The translations under genes and the position numbers were made by a program. Shown here in pieces: positions 42,742 through 63,609 of a stretch of 64,000 nt of DNA. The notes below the pieces were generated by a model. That model was not told where the DNA came from. It saw only the letters and a program-made list of their open reading frames with translations, and did not search any database. Source of the DNA: a virus (taxonomy: Duplodnaviria > Heunggongvirae > Uroviricota > Caudoviricetes); IMG/VR virus record IMGVR_UViG_2541047857_000009. The stretch is one strand, 5' to 3'. Position 1 is the first letter of the stretch, and every line of letters begins with the position of its first letter.

Positions 42742-42777
42742 AGGTAAGGGGTGATAAAACACCCCTATTTTATTGCA

Positions 42778-44177: not shown

Positions 44178-44197
44178 TACTGTATGTATAAACAGTA
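44178..44197. promoter_or_regulatory. LexA (SOS) box upstream of umuD'
   Basis: TACTGTATGTATAAACAGTA fits CTGT-N8-ACAG. Confidence 0.8.
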
Positions 44198-44215
44198 TTT
44201 ATGGGAGTGCAAATC

Positions 44216-44587: not shown

Positions 44588-45855
44588 TGTTTGCCCTGGT
44601 TGATGTAAATTCATTTTATGCGAGTTGTGAGACGGTATTCAGGCCTGACCTGAAAGGAAAACCGGTTGTTGTGCTGTCGAATAACGATGGCTGCGTGATT
44701 GCGCGCTCTGCTGAAGCGAAACTGCTCGGCGTCAAAATGGGTGACCCGTACTTCAAACAGAAAGACCTGTTCACGCGGTGCGGAGTTGTCTGCTTCAGCA
44801 GCAATTACGAGCTCTATGCGGACATGTCCAACCGGGTGATGACAACGCTCGAAGAGATGTCGCCGCGCTGCGAAATATACTCAATAGACGAGGCTTTCTG
44901 TGACCTTACCGGGGTTCGTAATTGCAGAGTTCTGGAAGACTTTGGACAGGAACTAAAGGACGCTGTATACCGTAACACGCGGCTTGCTGTCGGCGTTGGG
45001 ATAGGGCAGACAAAGACACTGGCGAAACTGGCAAATCATGCTGCAAAACGATGGCAGCACAAGACAGGTGGAGTTGTTGACCTGTCTAACGTCGAGCGTC
45101 AGCGCAAACTGATGGCAGCACTTCCTGTTGATGAGACATGGGGAGTGGGCCGGCGCATTACCAAAAAGCTCGAGGCTATGGGGATCAAGACGGTTCTCGA
45201 CCTGGCTGATACTGACATACGATTTATTCGTAAACATTTTAATGTGGTTTTGGAAAGGACTGTGCGTGAGCTGCGAGGAGAGCAGTGTCTAGAACTGGAA
45301 GAGTTTGCACCCGTAAAACAAGAGATTGTATGTAGCCGCTCATTCGGCGAACGAGTCACTGAATACGATGCAATGCGGCAGGCTATCTGTAGCTACGCGT
45401 CGCGAGCAGCGGAGAAGTTGCGTGGAGAGCATCAGTATTGCCGGTTTATCTCTGCGTTCGTCAAAACGTCACCATTCGCGCTTAATGAGCCATATTACGG
45501 TAACAGCGCATCGGTGAAGTTGCTGACACCGACGCAAGATAGCCGGGACATCATTGCGGCGGCCACTAAGTGCCTTGATGCTATATGGAAAGATGGTCAC
45601 CGATACCAGAAAGCGGGCGTGATGCTCGGAGACTTCTTCAGTCAGGGCGTCGCACAACTTAACCTGTTTGATGACAATGCACCTCGCGTCGGAAGTGAGA
45701 AGCTGATGGAAGTTCTGGATCAACTCAACACTAAAGGCGGGAGAGGTACGCTGTATTTTGCAGGGCAGGGCATCCAGCAGCAGTGGGCGATGAAACGAGA
45801 AATGCTTTCGCCGCGGTACACAACAAGATTTTCCGATCTGCTGCGCGTTAAGTAA
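44587..45855 (+). CDS. umuC: UmuC, Y-family translesion DNA polymerase subunit
   Basis: 422 aa; [15 protein letters not shown]...SIDEAF Y-family signature; ATGA-coupled to umuD'. Confidence 0.85.
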
Positions 45856-46519
45856 CGAGTTCAATCAACTCCGGCCCCTGATTTTTCACATTACCAACGG
45901 AGCGCGTCACGGCGTGCCAGATAAACTTGTCGGCGGAAACCGCTCCGTCGGCTGCTATCTCTTCCGCTTCTTTCCCGCCTATATCCTGGCGCATCCACTC
46001 ACGGGCCGCTTCAGGTGACAGAACAAGCGGCCGTCTGTCGTGAATGTCGACCAGTCCTTTATCAGCTGCAGATGTCACTATCAGAAAGCCCTCAGCGTCA
46101 TCACCGCGCTCAAATGGCGTGCTGCCTATAGCTGCCATAAAGATTGGCTGACCGTCGGCACGGTGAATGAAGTAGGGCTGTTTCTTGTCGCCTTCCTTTT
46201 TCCATTCGAACCAGCCATCAGCAAAGCAGATCGCCCGGCCATGTTGCCAGAGAGGTTTGAACATTCGGCTGGTGGCTGCGGTTTCGACGCGTGAGTTAAT
46301 CAGCGGCGGTTTATCCCACCACCCGGGAGCGTATCCCCAGAACACTGGATCGAGATGCAGCTGCTCGTCGCGTTCGCTCAGCAGCAGAACTTTGGTGCCT
46401 GGCGCAACGTTGTAGCGTCCAATCGGCTCCGGGTCGTACGCGATGTCGCGATCGGCTTCATCCGCCAGGTAAGCCAGGTATTCTTCACGCGTTTGAGCTT
46501 GTGCAAAACGTCCACACAT
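45848..46519 (-). CDS. SOS response-associated peptidase (SRAP/YedK family)
   Basis: 223 aa starting MCGR with catalytic Cys2; 3' end overlaps umuC by 8 bp. Confidence 0.75.
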
Positions 46520-46681
46520 AGGAACCTCCAGCCAGATGTCAGACTGAAAGTATAGGGTAGGGAGAAAAAACTGGTGCGCACCGAAACTCTATGATTTTGA
46601 AACAGGGGCATGATGATGGAAGTCATCGAGGCGGTAAAGCGGGGTTTTGCGAAACTGGAAGGAGCTACGCAAAACGCAGCT

Positions 46682-46726
46682 GAAAAAAAAGCACGCTTCG
46701 TACAAAGTGTACATTAAAGCGTGCTT
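46682..46726 (-). terminator. terminator downstream of yciB
   Basis: 10-bp stem AAGCACGCTT/AAGCGTGCTT with nested GTACA..TGTAC loop, T-tract on minus strand. Confidence 0.6.
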
Positions 46727-46793
46727 TTAATCATAATTTCATGTCAATATCATAACTAACTAATTGAAATTGATGTGTTTTAAGTGTTATTTA

Positions 46794-47330
46794 TTACTTC
46801 TCTTCCTGCGGCATGTGGCGGTAGATATAGATACCGCTTAACAATGTGAAGATTAAGGTAAGGGCGGTCAGGCCAAAGACTTTAAAGTTGACCCAAATAT
46901 TTTGCGGCAGCCAGAATGCGATGTAGATGTTTGCCAGACCGCAAAGGATAAAGAAAACAGCCCAGGCCAGATTCAGCTTCGACCATACCGATTGCGGCAG
47001 GGTGAGTTCTTTACCCAGCATCCGCTGAATTAGCGGCTTTTTCATCACCCATTGGCTGACTAACAGGGCACCCGCAAACAGGGCATAAATGACAGTAACC
47101 TTCCATTTAATAAACTCATCATTGTGGAAGAACAGCGTCAAGCCACCGAAGACGACCACCAGAACAAAAGTGATCAGGGCCATCTTCTCAACCTTACGAA
47201 AGCGAACCCAGCTATATATAAGCACAATCGCCGTGGCGACGATGAGCGCCGCAGTAGCCGCATAGATGTCATAAATCTTGTAAAACGCGAAAAAGACAAC
47301 CAGCGGTAAAAAATCAAGAAACTGCTTCAT
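46794..47330 (-). CDS. yciB: YciB intracellular septation protein
   Basis: 178 aa, near-identical to E. coli YciB as recalled. Confidence 0.85.
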
Positions 47331-47359
47331 TTTACGATTCCGTAATCAAATGCTTAAGG

Positions 47360-48103
47360 TTATTGGCGAATCAACATATACAGGCGGAACAGATAGATGA
47401 GCAATACGGCTGAAATCAGGTTGCTCAAGGTGTTCGCCAGTACGGCACCAATTTCCGGGGTTAATGCGGCAAAAGAAGAGGCAAAAAGCAGCAACAGTGT
47501 TTTTGCCAGCAACCAGCTCAGTACTGCGGGTGCCACCAGACGCATATTCGCCCATGTCAGCCGCATACTGCTACGCATCGAGGCAAAAACGCCCATTTTG
47601 TCCTGTACCAGCATCACCGGTGCCAGAGCCAGTAAAATGGCCATGATAATTCCCGGAACGACCACCAGCATGATGCCAATCTGTACTAAAAGGGTAGTCA
47701 GAAAAATCAGAATAAATAACTTTGGTAATATCGGCGCACTGGCACCAATAGCTCGCAGCGCACTGACTCTCTGACCCGCAGACACCAGCTGGATAATTAA
47801 TATTACGCCCCCGGCGAGAATGGCGTTACCGATTAATCCTGAAAAAGTGGACGCCGCTGAAGCCTGCAGCAAAATTTGTTGCTGTTCCGGTGACATATTC
47901 TGAACCAGGTCGAACAACCCACTACTGCCGCTAACGGGTACGCCGTCATTGAGCTGCGCAAGCTGTGCATCACTGGGTGAGAAAACATGCCCTAACACCA
48001 CTGTGATAAACGCACATAGCAACGATACCAACAGAATGGTCATAAATTGATTACGGAAAAAATTTCCGGTGTCACGGTATACGGACTGCGCCGTGATAGA
48101 CAT
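47360..48103 (-). CDS. yciC: YciC (UPF0259) inner membrane protein
   Basis: 247-aa polytopic membrane protein in conserved position. Confidence 0.8.
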
Positions 48104-48458
48104 GCACTCTCCTTGAGTTTTATGCAGGTGTTAATTAGCGGGCAATTGTACCCTGGTTAAGCCCCGGGTGGCAGCATCAGGTCTTGTATGGAAAAGCATA
48201 TCTTTGTAAAGCGGAGGTAATTGCTGGCCTTCAGGCGTGGGCAAACCGCTGAAAGTGGCGAGCGAGTTAATATTTGCGTAGCGAAATATATAAAAATTGA
48301 TTTAAATCACATTAACCAGGATTTTCAATGCAACTTCTAAATTAATCCAGATCAATAAAGGGTGAATTACCATATGTAATGTGATCTGTGTAGGATCATT
48401 TGTTACCCCAATGTGGGTATATTCGTCACGTTTTTATAACCATAACGACGGAGCGGAT

Positions 48459-49097
48459 ATGAAAAAGTTAACAGTGGCGGCTTTGGCAGTAGCAACTCTT
48501 CTCTCTGGCAGTGCCTTTGCACATGAAGCCGGCGAATTTTTTATGCGTGCAGGTTCTGCAACCGTACGTCCAACAGAAGGTGCTGGTGGTACGTTAGGAA
48601 GTTTGGGTGGATTCAGCGTGACCAATAACACTCAACTGGGCCTGACGTTTACTTATATGGCGACCGACAACATTGGTGTGGAATTACTGGCAGCAACGCC
48701 GTTCCGCCATAAAATCGGCACCCGGGCGACCGGCGATATTGCAACCGTTCATCATCTGCCGCCAACACTGATGGCGCAGTGGTATTTTGGTGATGCCAGC
48801 AGCAAATTCCGTCCTTACGTTGGTGCAGGTATTAACTACACCACCTTCTTTGATAATGGATTTAACGATCATGGCAAAGAGGCGGGGCTTTCCGATCTCA
48901 GTCTGAAAGACTCTTGGGGAGCTGCCGGGCAGGTGGGGGTTGATTATCTGATTAACCGTGACTGGTTGGTTAACATGTCAGTGTGGTACATGGATATCGA
49001 TACCACGGCTAAGTACAAATCTGGTGTTACTACCGTAAAAGACTCGGTACGACTGGATCCGTGGGTGTTTATGTTCTCCGCAGGATATCGTTTTTAA
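48459..49097 (+). CDS. ompW: outer membrane protein W
   Basis: Signal peptide MKKLTVAALAVATLLSGSAFA, beta-barrel body, C-terminal GYRF. Confidence 0.85.
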   Translation: MKKLTVAALAVATLLSGSAFAHEAGEFFMRAGSATVRPTEGAGGTLGSLGGFSVTNNTQLGLTFTYMATDNIGVELLAATPFRHKIGTRATGDIATVHHLPPTLMAQWYFGDASSKFRPYVGAGINYTTFFDNGFNDHGKEAGLSDLSLKDSWGAAGQVGVDYLINRDWLVNMSVWYMDIDTTAKYKSGVTTVKDSVRLDPWVFMFSAGYRF

Positions 49098-49101
49098 TTT
49101 T

Positions 49102-49136
49102 CTCTGCAAAACCTCTGCAAAACCCCTCTGCAAAAC
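49102..49136. repeat. three direct 11-bp repeats CTCTGCAAAAC
   Basis: Copies at 49102, 49113, 49126 between ompW stop and int stop. Confidence 0.6.
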
Positions 49137-49162
49137 TGGTCATCAAATGACCAGTTTTTTCC
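49133..49162 (+). terminator. ompW terminator hairpin overlapping int stop codon (candidate attL core)
   Basis: Palindrome AAACTGGTCAT-CAA-ATGACCAGTTT plus T-tract; int stop codon lies inside it. Confidence 0.6.
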
Positions 49163-50273
49163 ATTCCTTACCGCGTGCGTCGTTGTAAATATCGGTCATT
49201 TTTTGATTCGAATGGCCCAGCAAAATTTTGGTATCAACCCCCTGCTCTCTGAACAATCGCTCTGATAAAGATCTCTGCTCATGGAAAGAGGGTGGGGTGC
49301 CATTAGCACGCCAGTTGTAATCCACAGAATCCCGGGCTTTTTTAAATGCAACGGTTAATGTTGCTGGCTTAACCATCCCGCCGCGCTTAGCTGTCCCTTT
49401 CGCGTGATGGTGGTGCAATAGCCACGGACTAAGAACGCAATCGCGGCAGGATGACACCACATCATCTAGGGTGAGATTTAATTTATCGCAACGCAGAGCC
49501 AGAGGGATGGCAATCCGGGTTCCTGTTTTTTGCTGTTCGACATGAAGATAACCATCCCGGATATCCGAAAATTGCATTTTGCAAATATCTGAAAGGCGCT
49601 GGCCTGTCATCAGTGCCAGCAGCATACCGCGCTGTAAAAAGTAACCATCCTTTTCCGCTGCGTTATAAATCATCATCCACTCATCAAAAGTCAGTCGCTG
49701 TCTTGATATCCGCACCTGCGGTTTTTTTGCCGATTCTGCAGGGTTAAAGCCTGGCGGGACATCGCCCGTTTGCTGAGCTTCCCGGAAAACATCGATCAGT
49801 ACTTTCCTGAAAATTTGTCCCATTCTGTTATGTCCTCTGGCCTTGTACTCTTCCAGTACTGATACCACATCTTTTACGGTTATGGCATCTAACGGTCTGG
49901 TGCCAAAACGTTCATCAAATACCCTGAGAGGGGCCGCTTTCTGTTTCAGCGTGTTGAGTTTGATCTCGCCGTTTTCATATCTTTCCTGTTGAATTTTTCT
50001 GTAATTATTCAGAAAAATGGTAACGGTTGATGAACCGCCGGTGTCACTAATAATTTTCTCCTGCAGACTGAGCATTTGTTCCATTTGCTGCCGGGCAAGA
50101 CGGCTGTTCGCTTCTGCTGCAATAGTTTCTGCCAGTTTCTGGTCAATACTGCCGAGACCGTGATTTTTGCCTGTTATGGGATGCCTGTAACGCCAGTAAA
50201 CTTTGTTATTTCTTTTGTCAAAATACGGAGATAATCCCGGAACATCGGTTTTATATTTTCGCGGGCGCGCCAT
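49143..50273 (-). CDS. int: tyrosine integrase
   Basis: 376 aa; C-terminal catalytic region with LLGHSNQKMTDIY tyrosine motif. Confidence 0.8.
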   Translation of the reverse strand: MARPRKYKTDVPGLSPYFDKRNNKVYWRYRHPITGKNHGLGSIDQKLAETIAAEANSRLARQQMEQMLSLQEKIISDTGGSSTVTIFLNNYRKIQQERYENGEIKLNTLKQKAAPLRVFDERFGTRPLDAITVKDVVSVLEEYKARGHNRMGQIFRKVLIDVFREAQQTGDVPPGFNPAESAKKPQVRISRQRLTFDEWMMIYNAAEKDGYFLQRGMLLALMTGQRLSDICKMQFSDIRDGYLHVEQQKTGTRIAIPLALRCDKLNLTLDDVVSSCRDCVLSPWLLHHHHAKGTAKRGGMVKPATLTVAFKKARDSVDYNWRANGTPPSFHEQRSLSERLFREQGVDTKILLGHSNQKMTDIYNDARGKEWKKLVI

Positions 50274-50499
50274 CTTCCAGTATCCTCTTCAAAGCAGGGT
50301 GATCTGTGGCGATCACCTCCGGCTTGTTTACCATTCCGACAAAGCGAGCTTGCGGATCCACTCGCCAGCGTCTTCCAACTTTTTTGGGGAGAGGAAATAT
50401 CATTCCGGCTTTAGCGTATTTACTTAACGTACTCGGGGTAGGGACCGGTTCACTGAATTCCTCCTTTGCCCACTCAGTGAGCAGAATAAGTCTTGCCAT
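50251..50499 (-). CDS. xis: excisionase-like protein
   Basis: 82-aa ORF overlapping int start, upstream in same operon. Confidence 0.5.
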   Translation of the reverse strand: MARLILLTEWAKEEFSEPVPTPSTLSKYAKAGMIFPLPKKVGRRWRVDPQARFVGMVNKPEVIATDHPALKRILEDGAPAKI

Positions 50500-50563
50500 G
50501 AGCGTCGTTCGCTAATCATGGTCGCCGCCACTATAGCTGGTGGGCAACGACCGGGGTTGAACA

Positions 50564-53035
50564 TTAAAAATCAGCCTGATTTGGGATCAGTTTTTGCCAG
50601 ATAGCTGAAACGTATTTTGCCTGGTAACGGGCGTCATCAAGTGCATTATGGCGCTCACCTTCGAATGGAATAGCCGTTCTGGCATCGAAGTCTATGGCTT
50701 TCCCCAGCTCAACGATTGTGCGTACATCGCGATCGTTGTAGTAACGCCACGGGCAGGGGATCCCCTGCCGTTCGTATGAACGGCGCAAAATCGTGTTGTC
50801 GAAGTTGGCTCCATTTCCCCAAACCTGAACAAAAAATTCACCGGAGTTTTCGTCGATAAATTCCCGCAATTGTAACAGTGCATCATCTAACGGGATTTCA
50901 TCGGTCATAATGGCAGATTGCGCTTCGCGTGATTGCTTAAGCCACCATTTAATGGTGTCCCGATCAATGACTCCGCCAGCAGTTTCCAGATCGATAGTCT
51001 TACTAAATTCCGGTCCCATATCTCCGGTTTGCGGATCGAAAAATATTGCACCTATTGAGATGATCGGGGCATCAGGATTTTTTCCCATGGTTTCAAGGTC
51101 GATCATTAGATGGTCACACGTCCTGCTGGTGGATGTGATTTCGTGATGACCGTTCACCTTAATTGGGTGATCTGCCGTCTCGCCAGTTTCATTATCGCTA
51201 TTGTGATGCTGATTGCCGCCAGTGTTCTCCTTGTGTGGATGTTCAGCGCCTTCCATTTCCTCCGGATCATCTTCCTGAACTTCAACCTGATACTCTTCAT
51301 CGAATGTTTCTTGGTATGTTGCGTCGCCCATCACCGCGCCACAATCAGGACAGTTGCCGCCGCCGGTCTGACCGCAGGCGGTGCAGGCTTTTTCCACTTC
51401 CTGGTGCGCCACTGGTTCAGGCTGTTTCGTTTCTGGCTCGTTTTGTAACGCATTTGGACTGTTTTGTTCCGCTTTTTGGTAGTTCCGTTCCGATTCATGC
51501 TGGTTCTGGCTCACAGAATCGCGGGTCTGGATCCCCTTAATCCATTTCGGATCATTCGGGTCACTAATCCCTTCAACAAATTCACCACGTGATGCAGCAA
51601 GCAACTTATCGGCGTCAGGCTGGCTGATATTGGCTGCCTGCATAATTTTGTTTACTTCGTCAGCGGTAACTTTTATCGGCTCTGGTTGTTCTGAATCTTC
51701 AGCGGTATCTACATTTTGCGGTAAGCCCGTGTATGTGCCATTTTTTCGGGCAAAATATTCTTCTTTTGTGATTTCAGTGGCGCCAGCAGCCAGTGCCTTA
51801 TCCAGACCAGAAAGTTTGTTTGCGCGACCGTATTTTTCTCCGTCCTTATCTGCGAAGAGGAAATAGAACGGCCCCTCACGCTCTACAGATGGTTCAGCTT
51901 CCGGCGCGGTTTCATTTTTTGGGATATCAGATACCTCAGTTTCCACTGCATCAGTTTGTGTTTCTGATGACTGGAGAACATCAACAGTGCCCAGGTCTGT
52001 TTCTTCATTCTCAAACACGCCCTTTGTCGTCAGGTATTCGCAGATATATTTGTTCAGTGCTACGGGATCTTTGTGAATGTCGATCGGACGCTCACGGACA
52101 AGGCCAAAAATAGTTTGGCGGTCGTAGCGAAGGGCATCAGGCTGTTTGCGCATTGATGCCGAGATACGCTTCCAGTCTTCGCGGTCGTTGTCGATAACTT
52201 CTTTTTTTGCCCAGCGATGGATGCTGCCGTCAATGTTTCCGGCATCCACATCACCAGGCCAGAGAGCGTAGGCCAGTTCGTCATCCAGTGTTTTCCATGT
52301 CTGCTTGTATTCGCGATGAATGGCAGCAATGACCGGGCTGATTTTTCCTGTTGAATTTTCAGTGTACTGTTGATTGGCTCTGGCGCGGGCGAGATCAACA
52401 ACAGACGTGTATTTTCCGGTTTCCTTGCGTTCACCTTCGCGACGTTTTTTCCAGATGCGCATCTCTGCCTGAATTTCGGGCCATTTAGCACCAGGAATAC
52501 ATTTATGCTTAACCCACCCAATGGCGTGCAACTTAAGCTCCGGATACATGGCGTTAACTTCTGGCATTTTCATCAACGCTTCAACGATATGTCCGTCGAA
52601 TGTTGCCATGTCTTCCTGCAACAATTCCTGTGCGCTAATAACCATATCAACGGTGATGTTTTCACATGTGTCGAACTTAACCATGACAGCGTTCTGTACT
52701 TCAGGGGCCAGCTTGTCAAAAGTGACGTTCATCGGATCGGATTCAGTCTCGACCGGAACAAAGGAAGCAGACGCCTCATCCCAGCGGTTTTCCTGCATAT
52801 ATTCAGCATCCCAGGAATCGAGGGCAGGGCGGGGTATACCGGGTTTATCCTCGCAAACAAGAAATTTATAAGCGCAGTCCTGAGCAGCCGGATAATGTTC
52901 CAGGAATTGCCAGTGAAATTTTGCGCGGGCGCGACGTTCATCACCGGCTTCAATGGCAGTGGCTACAGCGACGGCACCTTCTTCCTTTATTGCCTGTTCG
53001 TCCGGAATGGCGGCGCAAATAAAGACTTTACTCAT
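50564..53035 (-). CDS. large exonuclease with C-terminal DEDDh (DnaQ-like) 3'-5' domain
   Basis: 823 aa; MIDLETMG, VWGNGANFD and HNALDDARYQ motifs; internal CTACG..CPDCG zinc-ribbon-like pair. Confidence 0.6.
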   Translation of the reverse strand: MSKVFICAAIPDEQAIKEEGAVAVATAIEAGDERRARAKFHWQFLEHYPAAQDCAYKFLVCEDKPGIPRPALDSWDAEYMQENRWDEASASFVPVETESDPMNVTFDKLAPEVQNAVMVKFDTCENITVDMVISAQELLQEDMATFDGHIVEALMKMPEVNAMYPELKLHAIGWVKHKCIPGAKWPEIQAEMRIWKKRREGERKETGKYTSVVDLARARANQQYTENSTGKISPVIAAIHREYKQTWKTLDDELAYALWPGDVDAGNIDGSIHRWAKKEVIDNDREDWKRISASMRKQPDALRYDRQTIFGLVRERPIDIHKDPVALNKYICEYLTTKGVFENEETDLGTVDVLQSSETQTDAVETEVSDIPKNETAPEAEPSVEREGPFYFLFADKDGEKYGRANKLSGLDKALAAGATEITKEEYFARKNGTYTGLPQNVDTAEDSEQPEPIKVTADEVNKIMQAANISQPDADKLLAASRGEFVEGISDPNDPKWIKGIQTRDSVSQNQHESERNYQKAEQNSPNALQNEPETKQPEPVAHQEVEKACTACGQTGGGNCPDCGAVMGDATYQETFDEEYQVEVQEDDPEEMEGAEHPHKENTGGNQHHNSDNETGETADHPIKVNGHHEITSTSRTCDHLMIDLETMGKNPDAPIISIGAIFFDPQTGDMGPEFSKTIDLETAGGVIDRDTIKWWLKQSREAQSAIMTDEIPLDDALLQLREFIDENSGEFFVQVWGNGANFDNTILRRSYERQGIPCPWRYYNDRDVRTIVELGKAIDFDARTAIPFEGERHNALDDARYQAKYVSAIWQKLIPNQADF

Positions 53036-53127
53036 TTTGTTTTACCTCATTACAGATTTAAGGGTGAACAAATCCCTGCCATTGCTGGCATATAAGAATG
53101 AAATCGGATGTTTATTACGGAACTGTT

Positions 53128-53319
53128 TTAAAGACCTGCCGGGATTTCGTTATTATCCTGGTGAATAACTTTATCGACCGGGTAACAGTTACCGGGAATT
53201 TTCTGTTCGGTTGCTGCAGTCACACACTCCTGCATTGTCCTGTGAACACTGACTGCAGTATCAACTGGCTCTCCGGAAACAAGAAAAACTGTCAGAACAA
53301 GTGCAAATGCTGTATTCAT
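53128..53319 (-). CDS. ydfD: YdfD-like small secreted/membrane protein
   Basis: 63 aa from internal Met; signal-like N-terminus; ATGA-coupled to dicB. Confidence 0.45.
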   Translation of the reverse strand: MNTAFALVLTVFLVSGEPVDTAVSVHRTMQECVTAATEQKIPGNCYPVDKVIHQDNNEIPAGL

Positions 53320-53504
53320 TGCCAGCATCCTTTTTGTATCGGACGTAAACGGGCCAACATTGAAAGAATGCATATTTTATTTAATAGCTCCCGTTCGTGT
53401 TTTCTCTTGTTAATGGCATCTTCAGTAAATACAGGGTTACTGATAGTGACACCAATTTCAAAACAACCTTCAGACGTATTAACGTTTGGTAATAACGTTT
53501 CCAT
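53316..53504 (-). CDS. dicB: DicB cell-division inhibitor
   Basis: 62 aa; METLLPNVNTSEGCFEIGVTISNPVFTEDAINKRK near-identical to K-12 DicB as recalled; GAGGA RBS. Confidence 0.7.
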   Translation of the reverse strand: METLLPNVNTSEGCFEIGVTISNPVFTEDAINKRKHERELLNKICILSMLARLRPIQKGCWQ

Positions 53505-53673
53505 TATCGCGTCCTCAACAATGAATTTTGTGATGCGGTGCCTGGTGCTTCCAGGTGACGTTAACCAGTTAACAATTAACGCCGGATACAGAGAATCCAC
53601 CCATAACACTGTTTTTGGTTTTAACTGTTCCGCGTGCGCTTAGCCGCATTCACCGCATCACAAAATTCACTTT

Positions 53674-53731
53674 AAAAAGGGCGGCAGAGCAGTCACGGAG
53701 TAAAACTGATACCGCCAAACGTCACCAGAAA
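53674..53731 (-). ncRNA. dicF: DicF small RNA
   Basis: Minus strand reads UUUCUGGUGACGUUUGGCGGUAUCAG...CUGCCGCCCUUUUU, matching DicF as recalled. Confidence 0.55.
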
Positions 53732-54069
53732 ATTGATAACAGAGGGCGTTGCAGCGGGGTTGTCACTTAAGCGTATGGTCAACCTGACAACCCGGTGTCC
53801 TCAACGGTGGAAGGAATAACCCCGCCATACTTACCGCCGCGCCATTTCGCGGATTGCCACAACCGGAAGCGCACGGTCGACGAAAATTTAACGACAGGCT
53901 ATCTATGAACCAGCTACCTCGCCGTGCGCTTTCGCGTTATGGTCTGACTTTTCAGGGAAATATCCTTTCAGTAAACTGTCAGTGCCGGATGCTCACCCGT
54001 GTCCGGCGCACGCACTCCACCTCACCCGTGGAGAACTCCTTAATTACCAACCTTAGCTTCGTTGGTTAG

Positions 54070-54291
54070 CTATTCACGCGGGTATGTAATCATTCTGGCA
54101 ATGCTTAATGCCGCTGCTTTTTCCAGATTGGTGATATCCTGCTCCAGAGCGGACAGATTTTCAGCCTGCTTAGCCCTGGCTTCATTGGCCCATTTCAAAT
54201 CCTGCGCTGCATTAATTTTCTGGCGCATCCACTCATAAAGTTCATCATTGGTATAGTCTGGCGCGATGATGACGGGTTCTCGTTTCTGCAT
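54070..54291 (-). CDS. ydfC: YdfC-like protein
   Basis: 73-aa ORF in ydfC position. Confidence 0.45.
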   Translation of the reverse strand: MQKREPVIIAPDYTNDELYEWMRQKINAAQDLKWANEARAKQAENLSALEQDITNLEKAAALSIARMITYPRE

Positions 54292-54320
54292 ACTGATTCC
54301 TCGCGGTGCTGCTTCGCTTA

Positions 54321-54449
54321 TCAGCCGTTAGATTTTGCCGAGCTGGAAAGCGCCTGTTTAAACTCACTGAAGCTGAGAGCTTCTTCGCCTTCGGCAAGGC
54401 CTTCGAAGTATTCTTCGTAAGCCTTTTCCATGATTGTGTCGAAATCCAT
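54321..54449 (-). CDS. ydfB: YdfB-like small protein
   Basis: 42-aa ORF (MDFDTIMEKAYEEYFEGLAEGEE...) found by manual translation. Confidence 0.4.
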   Translation of the reverse strand: MDFDTIMEKAYEEYFEGLAEGEEALSFSEFKQALSSSAKSNG

Positions 54450-54450
54450 A

Positions 54451-54609
54451 TCACTCACCTGAGTTTCTTTCCAGCCAGCGACGGGCACCATTTTCGGTTT
54501 TAAACGTTTTGCTTTTGGTATACGTCATCGCGGTGAACGTACCGTCCTGGTTGGGGAACACGCCACATACCAGAGATTCGCTGTTGCCAAGATCGATAGT
54601 ATCCATGCT
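54451..54609 (-). CDS. ydfA: YdfA-like small protein
   Basis: 51 aa from internal Met (MDTIDLGNSESLVCGVFPNQDG...). Confidence 0.45.
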   Translation of the reverse strand, partial: SMDTIDLGNSESLVCGVFPNQDGTFTAMTYTKSKTFKTENGARRWLERNSGE

Positions 54610-54898
54610 GACCTCATTTCCCCTTAACGCCGGGGTAGCGGAACAAAAACCTGCTGCATAGTTATTAAAGTTGAACCCTGCCGTCATGTTCTTACGCCTC
54701 GGGCTGGCTACTTAACCCCTGACCACTGCCTGGTAACTAGAAGTATTGCCCTGCATTCTGTGGGGTGGGGAGAGGGAATGAATTAAGTTTAGAAAAATGA
54801 ACTTTTCAGGTCAATGTTTTTTTATCAAAACATTTTAAGCAGGCAGCTGTTAAGCCATCACCACGATGGCATACAGTTAATCAAATAGATGAGGTCGG

Positions 54899-55537
54899 TT
54901 AAATATTTTGTTGAATTTTAAAGCATACGCCCAATATGCAAGATAGATCATCCAGCATAATTGAAGGGTAGCGAGGATTCGTGGGGACTAAAAGAATATC
55001 CGGCCCTTCTATCTCCAGTTTACGAATGACAGGTGTTGTGGTCCCTTTGGGTAAGGCAAGGACAATATTTCCTGGTTGTACGGTTCGATCGGGATCAACA
55101 AAAACTGTTGAACCATTTGGGATGGAAACTCCCCCACCAGATGTTGACATACTGTCACTCTCTAGAACAACTGCAAAGGTATTGGCCGGGATTTCTCCGA
55201 CAAGCTGCACACAAGAGGTTATTGAGGAATTTTTCATATAATCACTCCAGCTTGCTGCCTGCTGAAGTGATAGTAGCGGAACCGTTTTTATCGGCGGTAA
55301 AGATAGATCAAGCGAATCACCTGTATTTAACTCTCCTCCATTAAGAAGCCAATTTTCGTTTACTTTCAATATTTTTGCCAGTGAACTTATGTAACGCGAG
55401 GACGGCGCTCCTCCACCGTTCATCCATTGACTTACGGAGCCTTTTGATGCGCCAGTGGCATTGACAAGGTCTTTGCCTTTCAGGTTTAGCGCATGCATAC
55501 GTTGGGTTATGCGTTCAGATATTGTTTGCTTGTTCAT
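54899..55537 (-). CDS. cI-like repressor (HTH + S24 peptidase)
   Basis: 212 aa; N-terminal HTH; C-terminal peptidase domain with ESDSM serine motif. Confidence 0.75.
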   Translation of the reverse strand: MNKQTISERITQRMHALNLKGKDLVNATGASKGSVSQWMNGGGAPSSRYISSLAKILKVNENWLLNGGELNTGDSLDLSLPPIKTVPLLSLQQAASWSDYMKNSSITSCVQLVGEIPANTFAVVLESDSMSTSGGGVSIPNGSTVFVDPDRTVQPGNIVLALPKGTTTPVIRKLEIEGPDILLVPTNPRYPSIMLDDLSCILGVCFKIQQNI

Positions 55538-55628
55538 GTTTTGATTTTAAAACACAGATGGTTTTGTTTCTTGACTTTCTTTGGTTTTGATTATTAAACT
55601 TTTGGCGTTCAGTTTTATGGAGCGACTC

Positions 55629-55871
55629 ATGAAAAAATCAGAAGTATTAGGCTATTTTGGCGGAGTTGTTAAAACAGCCGCAGCTCTAGGAACGTCAAAA
55701 ACCACAGTCAGCATGTGGGGGGAAGAGGTTCCGTGGAAATGGGCGTTGCTAATTCAGGCAGTCACTGCCGGGGCGCTCAAATATGAGTTACACATACCGA
55801 CGGTTGTCATTCCCGGTTCTGATCATAATCCGCCTTCTAACCAAGGGGGGATTCATGAAAATCAAGCATGA
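55629..55871 (+). CDS. Cro/YdaS-like HTH regulator
   Basis: 80 aa divergent from cI; GGAG RBS; HTH GTSKTTVSMW. Confidence 0.55.
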   Translation: MKKSEVLGYFGGVVKTAAALGTSKTTVSMWGEEVPWKWALLIQAVTAGALKYELHIPTVVIPGSDHNPPSNQGGIHENQA

Positions 55872-56280
55872 ACACATCCGCATGGCGATGAATGCCTGGG
55901 CGCGTCCTGATGGCGAAAAAGTTCCGGCAGCTGGAATAACCCAGGCTTATTTTGAGTTGGGTATGACGTTTCCTGAACTGTACGACGACAGCCATCCGGA
56001 AGCCCTGGCTCGCAATACCCAGAAAATTTTCCGCTGGATAGAGAAAGACACCCCTGATGCAGTTGAAAAAATTCAGGCGTTGTTACCAGCGATCGAAAAG
56101 GCAATGCCACCTTTGCTGGTGGCCAGAATGCGCAGCCACAGTTCAGCTTATTTTCGGGAGCTGGTGGAGACGCGGGAGCGACTGGTGAGAGACGCTGATG
56201 ATTTTGTCGCAGTGGCAATCGCCGGTTTCAATCAGATGAACCGTGGTGGCCCGGCAGGAAATGCTGTGGCAGTACATTGA
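55855..56280 (+). CDS. ydaT: YdaT-like protein
   Basis: 141 aa starting MKIKHEHI as in Rac YdaT as recalled. Confidence 0.5.
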   Translation: MKIKHEHIRMAMNAWARPDGEKVPAAGITQAYFELGMTFPELYDDSHPEALARNTQKIFRWIEKDTPDAVEKIQALLPAIEKAMPPLLVARMRSHSSAYFRELVETRERLVRDADDFVAVAIAGFNQMNRGGPAGNAVAVH

Positions 56281-56351
56281 CTGACAATAGCCATATCGAA
56301 TCGCTTCCGGCAACTCGTGAGTAAAAAGATTCGGTATCAGAAGAGGTGAGT

Positions 56352-57422
56352 ATGGCTAACGCCTGGCTCAGATTATGGCATGACATGCCAAATGACCCTA
56401 AGTGGCGAACAATTGCCAGGGTGTCAGGGCAGCCAATTGCAACAGTGATGGCAGTGTATATCCACCTCCTGGTGAGCGCGTCACGAAATGTCACGCGAGG
56501 TCACATTGATGTCACGACAGAAGATTTGGCAAGTGCGCTCGACGTGACAGAAGAGGTAATTGATTCAATTTTGCAGACGATGCAGGGGCGGGTACTTGAT
56601 GGTGATTTAATCACTGGATGGGAAAAACGCCAGGTGCTTAAAGAGGACAACGGCAATATTTCGCAAACCGCAAAATCTCCTGCAGAGCGCAAGAGGGCGC
56701 AGCGAGAGAGGGAAAGAAAGCGGGAACAAAATGGCGATTGTCACGGCGCGTCACGAAATGTCACGCACATGTCACGACGAGTCACGACAGATAAAGATAC
56801 AGATAAAGATACAGATCAAGAAGATCAAAACACTATGGTCCATGGCGTAAAAAACGCCACGAACCAGGCAGGGGATGTTCAGACCGTCAATCTTGGTCAG
56901 CCAGCAGGCACGACACCGGAAGCCGATTCAGCGTATGCGCTGAAAGCCGATTCGGGCGCTGTGCAGCAGGTGATGACCGCAAGGCCGGAGCAATCACACC
57001 AACTGCAGCAGCCCGAAGCCGATTCCGCCATTCAGCGGGAAGCCGATCGGGTAGTCCCGGAAAACACCGGGCAGTCTGTGGGACGAGTGGATTATCCGGA
57101 TGTGTTCGAACAGGTCTGGCGGGAGTACCCGTTGCGTGCTGGGGCAAACCCGAAGAAATCCGCTTTCAGTGCCTGGAAGGCCAGATTACGCGAGGGGGTG
57201 CCACCAGAGGCCATGCTGGATGGCGTGAGGCGTTACGCAAGATACTTGGCGGCTACCGGGAAAACGGGAACGGAATTTGTTCAGCGAGCGACGACGTTTT
57301 TTGGACCGGACCGGAATTTTGAGAACCCCTGGTTGCTCCCGGTAAGCGGCACGAACAACCAGCGTTGTGTGAATCATATTTCTGAACCGGATAACGAAAT
57401 TCCGCCGGGCTTCAGGGGGTAA
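56352..57422 (+). CDS. YdaU-like replication protein (DUF1376) containing iterons
   Basis: N-terminus MANAWLRLWHDMPNDPKWRTIARVSG; GTCACG iterons inside gene. Confidence 0.55.
   Translation: MANAWLRLWHDMPNDPKWRTIARVSGQPIATVMAVYIHLLVSASRNVTRGHIDVTTEDLASALDVTEEVIDSILQTMQGRVLDGDLITGWEKRQVLKEDNGNISQTAKSPAERKRAQRERERKREQNGDCHGASRNVTHMSRRVTTDKDTDKDTDQEDQNTMVHGVKNATNQAGDVQTVNLGQPAGTTPEADSAYALKADSGAVQQVMTARPEQSHQLQQPEADSAIQREADRVVPENTGQSVGRVDYPDVFEQVWREYPLRAGANPKKSAFSAWKARLREGVPPEAMLDGVRRYARYLAATGKTGTEFVQRATTFFGPDRNFENPWLLPVSGTNNQRCVNHISEPDNEIPPGFRG
56480..56793. repeat. origin-like iterons: two clusters of GTCACG repeats at 10-11 bp spacing
   Basis: GTCAC at 56480, 56490, 56500, 56511 and 56748, 56758, 56768, 56779, 56789; followed by GATAAAGATACA x2. 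Confidence 0.55.
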
Positions 57423-57462
57423 GTGTTAATTTCTGGTCATGAGGTAATTTTCAGGAGGGCTT

Positions 57463-57885
57463 GTGGCAAAAGTTTTTACACAAGAAGAGCGGGAAAAAAT
57501 TAAAGGACAGGTTGTTGAACTCGTACGCCAGAGTGGGCGTGAGACGTTACGGCAACTGGAAGTCAAGACAGGTGCGACAAGATATCTGATGAGCGTTCTC
57601 GCAAGAGAGCTGGTTGCCAGCGGCGATGTATGCAACTCTGGTTACGGGTTATTCCCGTCTGAACAGGCGCGTAAGGACTGGCAAAATGCCAGTAAAAAGC
57701 TCTCAAGGGCAAAGCTGAAGAAACCATCTGCGGTTGATCCGGACCTTATCTGGTCATTACCTGACGGAGAAATACGTCGCTACGACAGGCGTCAGAACAT
57801 AATCTGTCGCGAGTGCCGGAAGAGTGAAGTTATGCAGCGCATATTGTCGTTTTATCAGGGTGATGTTCGGTATTTATTGAAGTGA
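57463..57885 (+). CDS. hypothetical protein
   Basis: 140-aa ORF, GTG start, CRECRK motif. Confidence 0.4.
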   Translation: MAKVFTQEEREKIKGQVVELVRQSGRETLRQLEVKTGATRYLMSVLARELVASGDVCNSGYGLFPSEQARKDWQNASKKLSRAKLKKPSAVDPDLIWSLPDGEIRRYDRRQNIICRECRKSEVMQRILSFYQGDVRYLLK

Positions 57886-58034
57886 CGAGATTAAAGTGCA
57901 TTAGTTCAGATGCAAATTGACATTTTGTGGCACAGGGTAGAGCTAGCGTGGTTGTCCGCTTTGTGCCAATAGCGGACATTGCTGGCTCATGGTATGTTAG
58001 TTTAAGGAGGCAGGTTATGCCCTGTATTTCGCTG

Positions 58035-58043
58035 TGGTATAAT
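58035..58043 (+). promoter_or_regulatory. extended -10 promoter (TGgTATAAT) for the AT-rich cassette
   Basis: Perfect TATAAT with upstream TG, then AGGGAG RBS and GTG 58077. Confidence 0.45.
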
Positions 58044-58076
58044 AGTTGCGCAATTGATACAAGGGAGCGTTACATC

Positions 58077-59039
58077 GTGAAAATTGTTTTCGAGGTTAAT
58101 GGAAAGAAAGTTCCACTAAAATCTTTAAAATACATAAGCAAAAAAGATCAACTCGAAGTAATGAAAAACTGGTTCTTTGAAAACTTTGAAGATCCGGCAA
58201 ATGCTTGTCCGTATGAAAGTAGAGAAGGTGGCTATGCTTACATATATGGCGGGCCGTATGATGCGAGCGAAGAACTACAATCCATCTTCGGTCAATATGT
58301 TAAATCTGAGTATATTGAGGAATTAGTAGATGAATTACAAACACAATGTTTTGACTGGTCTGGAAACTCAAATAATATAGATGATTGGTACGATGATGAT
58401 ATCTACGACGCTGTAACGTCTTCCGGTAATCCGTATTTAAAATTCATTGATAATATCGATAAAATAAAAAAACTTGCAAAAGATAAAACTGAACAACAGC
58501 AAAAAAACCACTTGCTTAGTTTGCTCTACACGAATGTTATTACAGCTTTGGAAACGCTTTATGTTGAGCTATTCATTAATTCTATAGAGAAAGATGATGT
58601 CTACATAGCCAATTGTATAGAAAAAGGTAAGACTGAATTTAAAGTAAGCAAAGATATTGCTGCGTTGCCTTTCAAGGGTGAACCCATCGAGAAAATTAGG
58701 GGAGAGCTAATCAGGTCAATCAAGGAACACTTGATCAGTGCAAGCTGGCATAGCACTAAAAAGGTAATCGACCGCTATGAAGCTACATTCGATATAAAAG
58801 TACAAAAAGACTGTCCGATAGAAGCTATTGAATTGGCAACCCTCAATCGAAATCACTTAGTGCATCGTGGTGGAAAGGATAAAGAAGGGAACCTCGTAGT
58901 GATTACAGACCAGGATCTTGAAACGCTGATTGAAAATGCATCGAACCTGGCAATTATGCTCTACAACAGTTTAAATGTAGCAACGAATAAAACCACCATT
59001 TTGCAACCAGATGACAAACCGTTCATTCATGAATTTTAA
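58077..59039 (+). CDS. cassette gene A: protein with C-terminal HEPN-like Rx4H motif
   Basis: 320 aa from GTG 58077 (alt ATG 58017); GC drops here; C-terminal LNRNHLVHRGG fits HEPN R-N-x3-H. Confidence 0.5.
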   Translation: MKIVFEVNGKKVPLKSLKYISKKDQLEVMKNWFFENFEDPANACPYESREGGYAYIYGGPYDASEELQSIFGQYVKSEYIEELVDELQTQCFDWSGNSNNIDDWYDDDIYDAVTSSGNPYLKFIDNIDKIKKLAKDKTEQQQKNHLLSLLYTNVITALETLYVELFINSIEKDDVYIANCIEKGKTEFKVSKDIAALPFKGEPIEKIRGELIRSIKEHLISASWHSTKKVIDRYEATFDIKVQKDCPIEAIELATLNRNHLVHRGGKDKEGNLVVITDQDLETLIENASNLAIMLYNSLNVATNKTTILQPDDKPFIHEF

Positions 59040-59054
59040 TAGCGCAGGTCATAC

Positions 59055-60056
59055 ATGGATATTCGCACACGAAAGACAAAATTTTTAGAGTCGTTAGATT
59101 CAACTGAAGTGATACGCAAAGCAGTAAGTCTCGCTATAGATTGCATTATTGATAATCATAATAGTAATGAAGATACCCCCTTAGTTATTACCAGCTATGA
59201 TGATCTCTGTAGAATCCAGGTGCTAAATTATGTACAGGAGTTTTGCGAAGCTGCATTCCCTGATATGGATGAATATTACTTTAGTCCTAACATACTTCGC
59301 ATCAACGGCAAGACTAGTGAAGAAGCTTGTATTAACTTAATTAAACTCTTAAGAAGTACAAAAGGCATGCTATTCTGGTCCGATGCCCCATCGTGGTTCG
59401 CTAGCCTCCCCGACGGATTATTCCATGTTGTTAACATTGATCAAAAAATCGTTACTCGCGGCCTTAATAAGAAAAACTCTAAGCCGACAATAATCAATAA
59501 AGATTACAGTGTAGATACACTACTATCAGAGCTATTTTTGAATGGCGCACACATGGAGCAACCCAACGTACACAACGTTTCTGAGGGAAACATGAAGTTC
59601 TATGATGAATGCCATGCTGGATTAATCAGACCAATACCCGCTCCAATAGGCGCGTCATACGATGAAGAGATCACAATTAATTCTCCAGATTGGCAAAAGC
59701 TCGCGTGTGTAGCTTTACGCCGCTATCAGTCGAAGGAATGTCATGACGGAATGCAATGGGATACAACCGATCATGGTTGGACTGATGTAATCGCGTATCC
59801 ATTCGTCGAAGAAATACAATCAATGGATAATAGTGGTTATCGACAATGTTTAGTTGGGCTGGTCACAATAAACAATTCAAATGCAAATTCTCCGTACCTA
59901 TCTACCGTTTGGATACATCCATTTTATCGCAGGAGAGGGTTATTAAGTAAGTTATGGCCAAAATTACAAGAGTTATATGGAAGTAACTTCGAAATTGAGC
60001 GACCTAATGAAAATATGAAAGCATTTCTGAAAAGTGCGAAACACGCAGATTACTAA
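59055..60056 (+). CDS. cassette gene B: protein with C-terminal GNAT-like acyltransferase fold
   Basis: 333 aa, 15 nt after gene A; C-terminus CLVGLVTIN...WIHPFYRRRGLLSKLW resembles GNAT motif A region. Confidence 0.45.
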   Translation: MDIRTRKTKFLESLDSTEVIRKAVSLAIDCIIDNHNSNEDTPLVITSYDDLCRIQVLNYVQEFCEAAFPDMDEYYFSPNILRINGKTSEEACINLIKLLRSTKGMLFWSDAPSWFASLPDGLFHVVNIDQKIVTRGLNKKNSKPTIINKDYSVDTLLSELFLNGAHMEQPNVHNVSEGNMKFYDECHAGLIRPIPAPIGASYDEEITINSPDWQKLACVALRRYQSKECHDGMQWDTTDHGWTDVIAYPFVEEIQSMDNSGYRQCLVGLVTINNSNANSPYLSTVWIHPFYRRRGLLSKLWPKLQELYGSNFEIERPNENMKAFLKSAKHADY

Positions 60057-60372
60057 TTTATGAATCAGTCTGTGGAGTTAGGGTTGGTGTCAACAAGTAG
60101 GGTAAGAGCCTCAACGTGATGCTATGCCGACCTGCTCCCTGAGAATTCACACAGAAGGCTGCTAGCAATGTCTGCAGATCGCTCAAAGCGGACTAGAAGG
60201 TTAGCTTGCGTCGGACTTGGCGTATTTAAAGAAGTGCTGGTGGTGACTGGTTGTTGTGTTCCATTTCTACAGAACAAAATCACAGAAACTATACCCAATA
60301 GTTATATTGAATCAATGATGAGACAGCCTCATATTTATCAGAACTGGTGTACGTCCAATACAGGAGGTTGTC

Positions 60373-60462
60373 GTGCTGGTTCTCAAATGTGCGCTAGCTA
60401 TTGCGGCTGTAATGGCAATTTATTGTCTTGCTGTTGTTCTTATGGATCGCCTTTCTGATTGA
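60373..60462 (+). CDS. candidate small hydrophobic peptide (29 aa)
   Basis: AGGAGG RBS 5 nt before GTG; MLVLKCALAIAAVMAIYCLAVVLMDRLSD; not in ORF track. Confidence 0.25.
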   Translation: MLVLKCALAIAAVMAIYCLAVVLMDRLSD

Positions 60463-60673
60463 TTTTATATTGGCGAGGTGACGGGAGTTAAGTAGAATTG
60501 CTGCGGGTGCTTGAGGCTATCTGCCTCAGGCATGAACACCAAAGGCAGATAGAGAAAAGCCCCAGTTAATATTACGCGTCCTGCAAGACGCTTAACATTA
60601 ATCTGAGGCTCAATCTATGAACGGCAAATCTAGGTTAGCCTCTTACGTGCCGAAAGGCAAGGAGAAGCAGGCT

Positions 60674-60829
60674 ATGAAGCAGCAAAAGGCGATGTTAATC
60701 GCCCTGATCGTCATCTGTTTAACCGTCATAGTGACGGCACTGGTAACGAGGAAAGACCTCTGCGAGGTACGAATCCGAACCGGCCAGACGGAGGTCGCTG
60801 TCTTCACAGTTTACGAACCTGAGGAGTAA
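60674..60829 (+). CDS. hok: Hok/Gef-family type I toxin (in-frame Mok extension from 60617)
   Basis: MKQQKAMLIALIVICLTVIVTALVTRKDLCEVRIRTGQTEVAVF close to HokC/Gef as recalled; 70-aa in-frame upstream ORF as for mokC. Confidence 0.75.
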   Translation: MKQQKAMLIALIVICLTVIVTALVTRKDLCEVRIRTGQTEVAVFTVYEPEE

Positions 60830-60898
60830 GAGACCCGGCGAGGGAGAAATCCCTCGCCACCTCTGATGTGTCAGGCATCCTCAACGCACCCGCACGTA

Positions 60899-60925
60899 AC
60901 CCGCTTCGGCGGGTTTTGTTTTTTC
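60899..60925 (+). terminator. rho-independent terminator after hok
   Basis: CCCGC-ttcg-GCGGG plus T-rich tract. Confidence 0.65.
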
Positions 60926-60996
60926 CTGGCATTCTGGTTTACAATTCGCACGCCAGCCTGAACAACTGGCACCTGCTGCGCCAGCAGAGACAACCG

Positions 60997-61275
60997 ATGG
61001 CGCACGATACCAAATTACACAATTCTGATGATTCTGCCGTCTTTGCCAGCAGGCACGGGCGGCGTTCCCGCACTTTCAAATCTGACTGGTTCCAGCATCC
61101 CCCATGCACTGAAGAACAGGCCGAGTGGCTAATTCAGTGCTACCGCAGACACGGATACGAGATTAAGAAAGCCCTCAGCCTCGATTATCGTCACTGGATA
61201 ATCTCCGTCAGGCTTCCTTACTCCGAACGATCACCGCGTCCGTCCCGCACATTCCAGCAACGCATCTGGAGGTAA
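60997..61275 (+). CDS. hypothetical protein (Rem-position)
   Basis: 92 aa from internal Met downstream of hok terminator. Confidence 0.35.
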   Translation: MAHDTKLHNSDDSAVFASRHGRRSRTFKSDWFQHPPCTEEQAEWLIQCYRRHGYEIKKALSLDYRHWIISVRLPYSERSPRPSRTFQQRIWR

Positions 61276-61276
61276 C

Positions 61277-62323
61277 GTGCGAGTATTACTTCGACCTGTT
61301 CTGGTACCGGAACTCGGGCTGGTGATCGTTAAGCCGGGCCGTGAATCCATGCCGGTATTCCACAATACCCGGGTACTGGTGGAGCCGGAACCGAAAAGCA
61401 TGCGTAATCTGCCGTCCGGGGTTGTTCCTGCCGTTCGCCAGCCGCTAGTGGAAGACAAAACATTGCTGCCGTTTTTCAGTAACGCACGGGTGATTCGTGC
61501 TGCTGGTGGTGCTGGTGCATTGTCTGACTGGCTGTTGCGCCATATTAAATCCTGCCAGTGGCCACACGGCGATTATCATCACAGCGAAACCGTCATTCAC
61601 CGTTATGGTACCGGCGCAATGGTGTTGTGCTGGCACTGCGACAACCAGCTGCGTGACCAGACATCCGAATCACTCGAGCAACTTGCTCATCAAAACCTGT
61701 CAGCATGGATGATTGACGTCATACTCCATGCAATGAATGGCTCGCAGGAACGGGAATTATCGCTGGCTGAATTATCCTGGTGGGCGGTCCGCAATCAGGT
61801 GGCGGACGCGCTACCGGAAGCGGTATTACGTCGTTCGCTGGGGTTGCGTGCGGAAAAAATCCGCTCAATGTACCGTGAAAGCGACATCGTACCGGGAGAG
61901 CAGACCGCCACCAGCATACTGAAGCAGCGCACAAAAAATCTTGCGCCGCTGCCTCACGCCCACCAGCAAAACCCGCCACAGGAAGAGACGGTGGTCAGCA
62001 TTGCCGTTGATCCTGAGTCTCCGGAATCTTTCATGAAACGACCTAAACGTCGCCGCTGGGTTAACGAGAAATACACACGCTGGGTGAAGACACAGCCGTG
62101 TGCGTGTTGTGGTAAGCCAGCCGACGATCCCCATCACCTGATTGGTCATGGTCAGGGCGGAATGGGGACAAAATCTCACGATATTTTCACGCTACCGCTG
62201 TGTCGGGAGCATCACAACGAGCTTCATGCGGATCCTCTGGCGTTCGAAGAAAAGCATGGTTCTCAGGTTGATTTAATTTTTCGTTTTCTTGATCACGCCT
62301 TTGCAACTGGCGTGCTTGGGTAA
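61277..62323 (+). CDS. YdfU-like protein (DUF968) with C-terminal HNH/zinc-finger-like motif
   Basis: 348 aa; C-terminal CACCGK...HHLIGHG...CREHHNELH; GGAGG RBS. Confidence 0.55.
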   Translation: MRVLLRPVLVPELGLVIVKPGRESMPVFHNTRVLVEPEPKSMRNLPSGVVPAVRQPLVEDKTLLPFFSNARVIRAAGGAGALSDWLLRHIKSCQWPHGDYHHSETVIHRYGTGAMVLCWHCDNQLRDQTSESLEQLAHQNLSAWMIDVILHAMNGSQERELSLAELSWWAVRNQVADALPEAVLRRSLGLRAEKIRSMYRESDIVPGEQTATSILKQRTKNLAPLPHAHQQNPPQEETVVSIAVDPESPESFMKRPKRRRWVNEKYTRWVKTQPCACCGKPADDPHHLIGHGQGGMGTKSHDIFTLPLCREHHNELHADPLAFEEKHGSQVDLIFRFLDHAFATGVLG

Positions 62324-62335
62324 AAGAGGTGACTG

Positions 62336-63528: not shown

Positions 63529-63609
63529 TGTTGTTGATTTTTCCCGAATCTGTGGTAAATTTGCTCTAACGATGGGCGTTTTATGCCTGACGTTAGAAGA
63601 TTTTTTACA

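Follow-up and report, generated by a model that had tools for sequence, protein, structure and literature searches.

The 64,000-nucleotide (nt) stretch of viral DNA analysed here, which we call the window (IMG/VR record IMGVR_UViG_2541047857_000009), carries on its minus strand, from 54606 to 53128, an intact copy of the known prophage dicBF operon, ydfA-ydfB-ydfC-dicF-dicB-ydfD. Work on this operon, with its RNA and proteins, goes back to the late 1980s. All six elements lie on the minus strand in the order proposed by an initial annotation, and their matches to the known genes are far beyond chance. We consider it very probable that the operon occupies the early-left position of a lambdoid prophage next to ompW, is repressed by a CI-type repressor and acts much like its counterpart in Escherichia coli K-12. 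The parts of the operon are the following.

54606-54451, minus strand: ydfA, 51 amino acids (aa); Pfam PF07151 (DUF1391), E=8.8e-28; 49/51 residues identical to K-12 YdfA (96%)
54449-54321, minus strand: ydfB, 42 aa; PHROG 2061, E=1.3e-27; 42/42 residues identical to K-12 YdfB
54291-54070, minus strand: ydfC, 73 aa; PHROG 1744, E=4e-39; 71/73 residues identical to K-12 YdfC (97%)
53731-54069, minus strand: ydfC-dicF spacer, the K-12 counterpart of which carries the RNase III and RNase E sites that release DicF
53730-53679, minus strand: dicF small RNA (sRNA) gene; Rfam RF00039, 76.7 bits (gathering score 48), model positions 1-52 of 52
53671-53520, minus strand: dicF-dicB spacer in a predicted 21-bp long-range stem (arms 53671-53651 and 53540-53520), from the minimum-free-energy fold
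53504-53316, minus strand: dicB, 62 aa, cell division inhibition protein; 55/62 residues identical to K-12 DicB (89%)
53319-53128, minus strand: ydfD, 63 aa; Pfam PF07358 (DUF1482), E=3.6e-24; 58/63 residues identical to K-12 YdfD (92%)

The five reading frames are all intact and of full length, and gene set, order, spacing and family matches agree with the complete operon inside a prophage that the initial annotation had proposed; its upstream end had been placed at 54609, 3 nt away from the ydfA ATG at 54606. The sizes given for YdfA and YdfB were correct, and the YdfC-sized open reading frame is indeed that of YdfC, with a C-terminus one residue longer than in K-12. The ydfB ATG lies 1 nt past the ydfA stop codon, and the ydfD ATG overlaps the dicB stop codon (ATGA). 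All five proteins fall in PHROGs phage protein families, and DicF, DicB, YdfA and YdfD have family matches above curated cutoffs. No NCBIfam model matched YdfA, YdfB, YdfC or YdfD, so that the identity of these four proteins is founded on Pfam, PHROGs and the direct comparison with K-12. DicB matches Pfam PF05358 over residues 1-62 of 62 (127.4 bits, cutoff 27) and NCBIfam NF049927 over its full length of 62/62 residues (132.7 bits, cutoff 100). Similarity to both DicF and DicB is significant in the database searches (RF00039, E=3.6e-15; PF05358, E=1.7e-37). DicB had been described as matching the K-12 protein almost residue for residue; its identity as a 62-aa DicB stands, but the near-identity does not, the substitutions relative to the K-12 allele being K2E, Q36H, V47L, L55P, M56I, P57Q and A61W. 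Because four of these seven differences lie within the last eight residues, the C-terminal tail is the variable part of the protein. The last gene had been predicted to encode a YdfD-sized secreted protein, which proved to be YdfD, but the literature describes this protein as causing lysis and binding IspG, with DicB offsetting its effect (PMC8835842). Two longer frames were rejected, a 78-aa in-frame extension of ydfA from 54687, as the resemblance to K-12 reaches no farther than about 35 nt upstream of the 51-aa frame, and a 97-aa GTG-started extension of dicB from 53609, as the profile spans exactly the 62-aa form.

The dicF gene sits between ydfC and dicB, separated from them by spacers of 340 and 175 nt (341 and 175 nt in K-12), and was the sole DicF match of the Rfam scan in the whole window. 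It is identical at 53/53 positions to K-12 dicF (b1574), which is annotated with 53 nt, and its 3′ end is an intrinsic terminator, in which a stem-loop, present in the Rfam structure line and in the fold, is followed by TTTTT at 53678-53674. The initial annotation had read DicF and its terminator at just this place. The whole interval from the ydfC stop codon to the dicB start codon, which holds dicF, is 97.9% identical to K-12, where RNase III and RNase E yield DicF species of 190 nt and 53 nt from the polycistronic dicBp RNA (PMC10448788), and the window copy would probably be processed in the same manner. In K-12, DicF represses ftsZ via its 3′ part in an Hfq-dependent way, as was proven by compensatory mutations, and further targets are xylR, pykA and manX (PMC5069750, PMC6832061). 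A 1621-nt block with the operon is 100% identical to E. coli UTI89, S88, APEC O1, IHE3034, NU14, the type strain ATCC 11775 and others. Over 141 nt, UTI89 has the same ftsZ leader as K-12. Since DicF and the ftsZ leader are both identical to the K-12 pair, the pairing proven in K-12 applies unchanged.

Folding of the region 53760-53480 yielded the DicF terminator hairpin together with the 21-bp stem (z=-4.7), which encloses the greater part of the spacer between dicF and dicB and stops 4 nt short of the dicB Shine-Dalgarno sequence. We compared this region with other copies of the module by searching IMG/VR with the DicF core as a pattern, which gave at least 120 loci, and the arrangement was scored in the 88 loci with enough flanking DNA. 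The arms of the stem are kept in 52 distinct spacer variants among the IMG/VR matches listed, and they persist in loci of that list that have a different sequence in the centre of the spacer or a DicB that is only 58-72% identical. No real covariation was found across the 52 listed variants; nearly all changes are from G-C to G-U, with a single U-A, which therefore speaks for conservation and is compatible with the stem, not evidence of covariation. The stem could serve in RNA processing or in the control of translation; the portions of the dicBF literature available to us contain no discussion of it.

Gene order and spacing match those of the dicBF operon of the K-12 prophage Qin (ydfABC-dicF-dicB-ydfDE), and the DNA is 96.9% identical over the block that begins about 35 nt ahead of ydfA and closes with the ydfD stop codon; near-identity continues past this stop. 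In contrast, the DNA upstream of about 54641, with promoter, operator and repressor, is unrelated to that of Qin. The DicA repressor and the dicBp promoter/operator were sought upstream of the window operon, and neither was found there. The following elements occupy this region.

55537-54899, minus strand: lambda-CI-type repressor, 212 aa; HTH_3 and Peptidase_S24 (Pfam E=2e-13)
55632-55871, plus strand: Cro-type regulator, divergent from the repressor; Pfam P22_Cro, E=1e-15; Cro/CI family regulator in UTI89 and S88
54814-54786, minus strand: candidate early-left promoter, directed toward ydfA; TTGACC, 17 nt, TAAACT, from a consensus scan
54815-54832: operator-like palindrome TGTTTT-N6-AAAACA, copy 1, abutting the -35 of the leftward promoter
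55537-55554: operator-like palindrome, copy 2, in the cI/cro intergenic region and overlapping the cI start codon

The repressor gene stands where dicA is found in K-12. Its product aligns with lambda CI over residues 13-204 and has the catalytic Ser (ESDSM) and Lys (IRKL) conserved. Against the DicA model it reaches 41.5 bits (cutoff 101), in the N-terminal helix-turn-helix (HTH) only, and whereas the window protein combines an HTH with an S24 domain, K-12 DicA has 135 aa and no cleavage domain. In RefSeq, UTI89 and S88 show only a C-terminal 112-aa "LexA family protein" (window 55237-54899). The RefSeq repressor looks under-annotated, as the frame is open for 212 aa from the ATG at 55537 and the extra part is the HTH that aligns with lambda CI. 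The consensus scan also gave a candidate rightward promoter before cro (TTGACT, 18 nt, TAAACT), and a further 20-nt element, present in two copies that are 75% alike, overlaps the -10 hexamers of both candidate promoters.

The 64-kb window contains exactly two copies of the palindrome, as compared with 0.04 expected. Among the IMG/VR matches listed, both copies are present at the same distances from ydfA in 9/9 loci with this repressor allele, and the palindrome is present in 0/78 loci with other immunity regions. This layout is that of the left and right operators (OL/OR) expected of a CI-type immunity region, and the repressor would presumably bind to both copies. Some of the nine listed loci with the same repressor have a quite different DicB allele or are without ydfB and ydfC, which indicates that the immunity block and the dicB block recombine near ydfA. 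From the CI-type repressor and the matching operator-like palindromes, we predict that the lysogen does not express the operon, and control of the CI type rather than the DicA type bears on the timing of the toxic products.

The genes on the other side of the operon lead to the end of the prophage.

53035-50564, minus strand: exonuclease, intact, 823 aa; PHROG 2082 over its full length; Pfam Rv2179c-like exonuclease domain, E=1.6e-67
about 50499-50251: excisionase, placed with S88 as guide
about 50273-49143: integrase, placed with S88 as guide

The operon is best read as the early-left operon of a lambdoid prophage integrated next to ompW. Past the integrase follow, again with S88 as guide, the chromosomal genes ompW, yciC and yciB, and the surrounding prophage is 100% identical over 17.2 kb in S88 and others, hence one and the same prophage, integrated at the same site. 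Moving upstream from the operon, one finds the repressor, then Cro, a YdaT-family protein, replication-region genes, hokD and sok, RusA and a Q-type antiterminator. The exonuclease gene directly downstream of ydfD takes the position of the pseudogene ydfE in K-12, which is interrupted by the insertion sequence IS2; Qin has dicA upstream and the disrupted ydfE, IS2 and intQ after ydfD, whereas exonuclease, excisionase and integrase are intact in the window. The integration sites also differ, as Qin ends next to ynfP and rspB. In lambda, the early-left operon with Kil is located downstream of the repressor gene and is read leftward toward the recombination, excision and integration genes, and Kil blocks the FtsZ ring. 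The dicBF operon shares this position and this outcome, but its genes are unrelated to kil and it works by MinC/ZipA and an antisense RNA rather than by Kil. The window operon has no N-type antiterminator gene between promoter and ydfA. The K-12 promoter dicBp has been reported to resemble lambda PL (PMC10448788).

Our analysis establishes what each part is, how the parts are arranged, that the ftsZ target site is identical and how repressor and operators are laid out; the processing of the RNA, the activities of all the proteins and repression by the window's repressor would follow what is known from K-12. In the lysogen, the upstream CI-type repressor would bind to both palindromes, one by the leftward promoter and one between cI and cro, and keep the operon off. 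Upon loss of repression, one polycistronic RNA would start about 170 nt before ydfA. DicF would pair, together with Hfq, with the ribosome binding site of ftsZ and also with the xylR, pykA and manX mRNAs and block their translation, and transcripts reading through the terminator would allow the translation of DicB and YdfD. DicB would bind MinC, brought to the division ring via ZipA, and as a consequence the ring would fall apart, FtsZ would be depolymerised and cells would filament; YdfD would act as a lysis protein, the effect of which DicB would offset. In K-12, DicB furthermore blocks ManYZ-dependent sugar uptake and the entry of lambda-type phage DNA, for which MinC is needed (PMC6832061). 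In UTI89, a flow-sorting screen for filamentation upon overexpression gave the interval 1,392,009-1,395,131 as one of its strongest hits (PMC6206680), and this interval contains the exact sequence of the window operon, dicF included.

Several observations weigh against this account. The repressor reads Ala-Ala at the Ala-Gly cleavage position of lambda CI, and RecA-stimulated cleavage is therefore uncertain. The leftward promoter is a 9/12 match to the consensus, and the scan returned 5 sigma-70 sites compared with 4.3 expected, without enrichment over shuffles; as the scan thus adds no statistical support, the promoter call is founded on its position and the flanking palindrome. The linkage of palindrome and repressor reflects the inheritance of one DNA block and is not independent evidence of binding. 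The DicF-ftsZ duplex of -38.5 kcal/mol is not distinctive, since 30/500 shuffled DicF sequences pair as well, for which reason the case for ftsZ is built on the sequence identity of both partners. Finally, the K-12 allele on which DicB has been studied differs from the window allele at 7/62 residues, four of them in the C-terminal tail.

A different weight was given to the operon by the initial annotation, which had noted that DicB protects against some phages through ManYZ and had seen here a second defence-relevant module of the prophage. In this interpretation the main role would be anti-phage defence, in that DicB, aided by the repression of manX by DicF, shuts ManYZ and excludes lambda-like phages; we regard it as possible but doubtful. 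Induction of dicBF in K-12 does protect against lambda and other ManYZ-dependent phages, mainly in a DicB- and MinC-dependent manner, and DicF represses the manXYZ mRNA, but the protection needed artificial induction and expression was toxic (PMC6832061). The phage protection is thus borne out for the K-12 allele under these conditions, and the identity of the operon is secure, whereas the step from there to a defence module is weaker. In the lysogen, the window operon is expected to be off, and its DicB allele is not the one used for ManYZ exclusion, with the seven substitutions given above. The operon also sits where early-left host-takeover genes such as lambda kil are found. In PADLOC-DB 2.0, a 2023 library not aimed at superinfection exclusion, none of the five proteins YdfA, YdfB, YdfC, DicB and YdfD matched a model at E values up to 0.01. 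The natural inducing conditions of K-12 dicBF were not found by the authors at the time (PMC6832061), and later work described antirepressor-mediated derepression and spontaneous derepression in a subpopulation. Because of the predicted repression, the differing DicB allele and the absence of a PADLOC match, it is plausible that phage exclusion is a side effect of an early-left host-takeover module and not an established defence module of the lysogen.

A self-cleavage-domain repressor in place of the uncleavable DicA means that the operon might be switched on by DNA damage. This leads to another interpretation, in which the operon is a damage-inducible filamentation factor of extraintestinal pathogenic E. 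coli, self-cleavage of the repressor during the SOS response releasing DicF and DicB to add to the action of SulA. The S24 domain with its Ser-Lys dyad, absent from K-12 DicA, the occurrence of the locus in UTI89, S88, APEC O1 and other strains of the ST95 (sequence type 95) type and the filamentation caused by overexpression of the UTI89 region (PMC6206680) are in line with it. We nevertheless judge it unlikely, given Ala-Ala rather than Ala-Gly at the cleavage site and the literature that we found on DicF in extraintestinal strains, in which no infection phenotype is reported. Equally speculative is the extension that damage would thereby bring about a second SOS-linked division block and a transient exclusion of phages in uropathogenic, meningitis-associated and avian lineages, with the DicB form ending in PIQKGCWQ differing in strength or partner. 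That the operon is a silent, decaying remnant without current activity is very improbable: the homologous K-12 prophage Qin is defective, and in the S88 copy of the prophage the lysozyme gene is frameshifted and other late-region genes, outside the window, are partial, but the five frames are intact, DicF does not differ from the RNA that is active in K-12, the exonuclease, excisionase and integrase genes downstream have remained whole, in contrast to those of K-12, the identical UTI89 region filaments cells when overexpressed (PMC6206680), and the complete five-gene form is the commonest arrangement, with 40/88 loci among the IMG/VR matches listed.

The reading as a CI-controlled early-left dicBF operon fits into a module that is already known, widespread and annotated, and its recognition here is correct but ordinary. 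A match was found in 4766/5426 complete E. coli genomes, with a median of 2 places per genome and a maximum of 10, and the module is also present in the isolated temperate phages Tritos, mEp460_ev081 and PhiR42_1 and in records of ompW-integrated prophages (PPompW). Most of the arrangements other than the five-gene form, in the 88 scored loci among the matches listed, are without ydfB and/or ydfC. Among the 120 IMG/VR matches listed, only the K-12 allele of DicB (27 loci) is more frequent than that of the window (20 loci). These listed matches further show that dicF and the dicF-dicB spacer are almost invariant and that the module is otherwise a mosaic, in which ydfB and ydfC are often missing, the upstream immunity region is freely swapped and at least four DicB alleles occur, 100, 89, about 72 and about 58% identical to that of the window. 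Copies of dicF in O157:H7 prophages belong to the same sRNA family, have a lambdoid prophage context as well and number several per genome. Those DicF sRNAs have been linked to the low-oxygen control of a virulence regulator (PMC6832061). To our knowledge, no such virulence-regulator target is known for the lineage of the window copy.

RefSeq annotates ydfA, ydfB, ydfC, dicB and ydfD alike in UTI89 and S88, and the proteins of the identical operon are WP_000379589, WP_000344964, WP_001171970, WP_000449192 and WP_001090203. The dicF gene is not in the RefSeq feature tables of UTI89 and S88, though it is identical to the annotated K-12 gene. What the window copy adds is only the CI-type instead of the DicA-type regulatory context and two annotation gaps. 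The result matters little beyond correct annotation; the useful points are the dicF gap, the under-annotation of the repressor and the CI-type control.

A few observations concern the remainder of the window. A match to the sok antitoxin RNA at 60505-60679 (plus strand, 113.3 bits) lies beside hokD; the two form a type I toxin-antitoxin pair of this prophage, as they do in K-12 Qin. An isrJ-type sRNA match at 17711-17783 (plus strand, 64.9 bits) is located about 360 nt before a tRNA gene at 18144-18215 (plus strand) and may mark an island or prophage boundary, far from the operon. The right part of the window (46798-64000) is 100% identical to S88, MS7163, ExPEC XM, the type strain (JCM 20135) and others. 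For window positions 36000-49099, left of yciB, the best match among complete genomes is strain 20A24 with 99.5%, and the matching region carries genes for phage tail proteins, an esterase, an acyltransferase and a Y-family polymerase. The different best matches on either side indicate that two prophages flank the short ompW-yciC-yciB segment. This combination of two prophages is rare and was covered at ≥80% in only 2 complete genomes.

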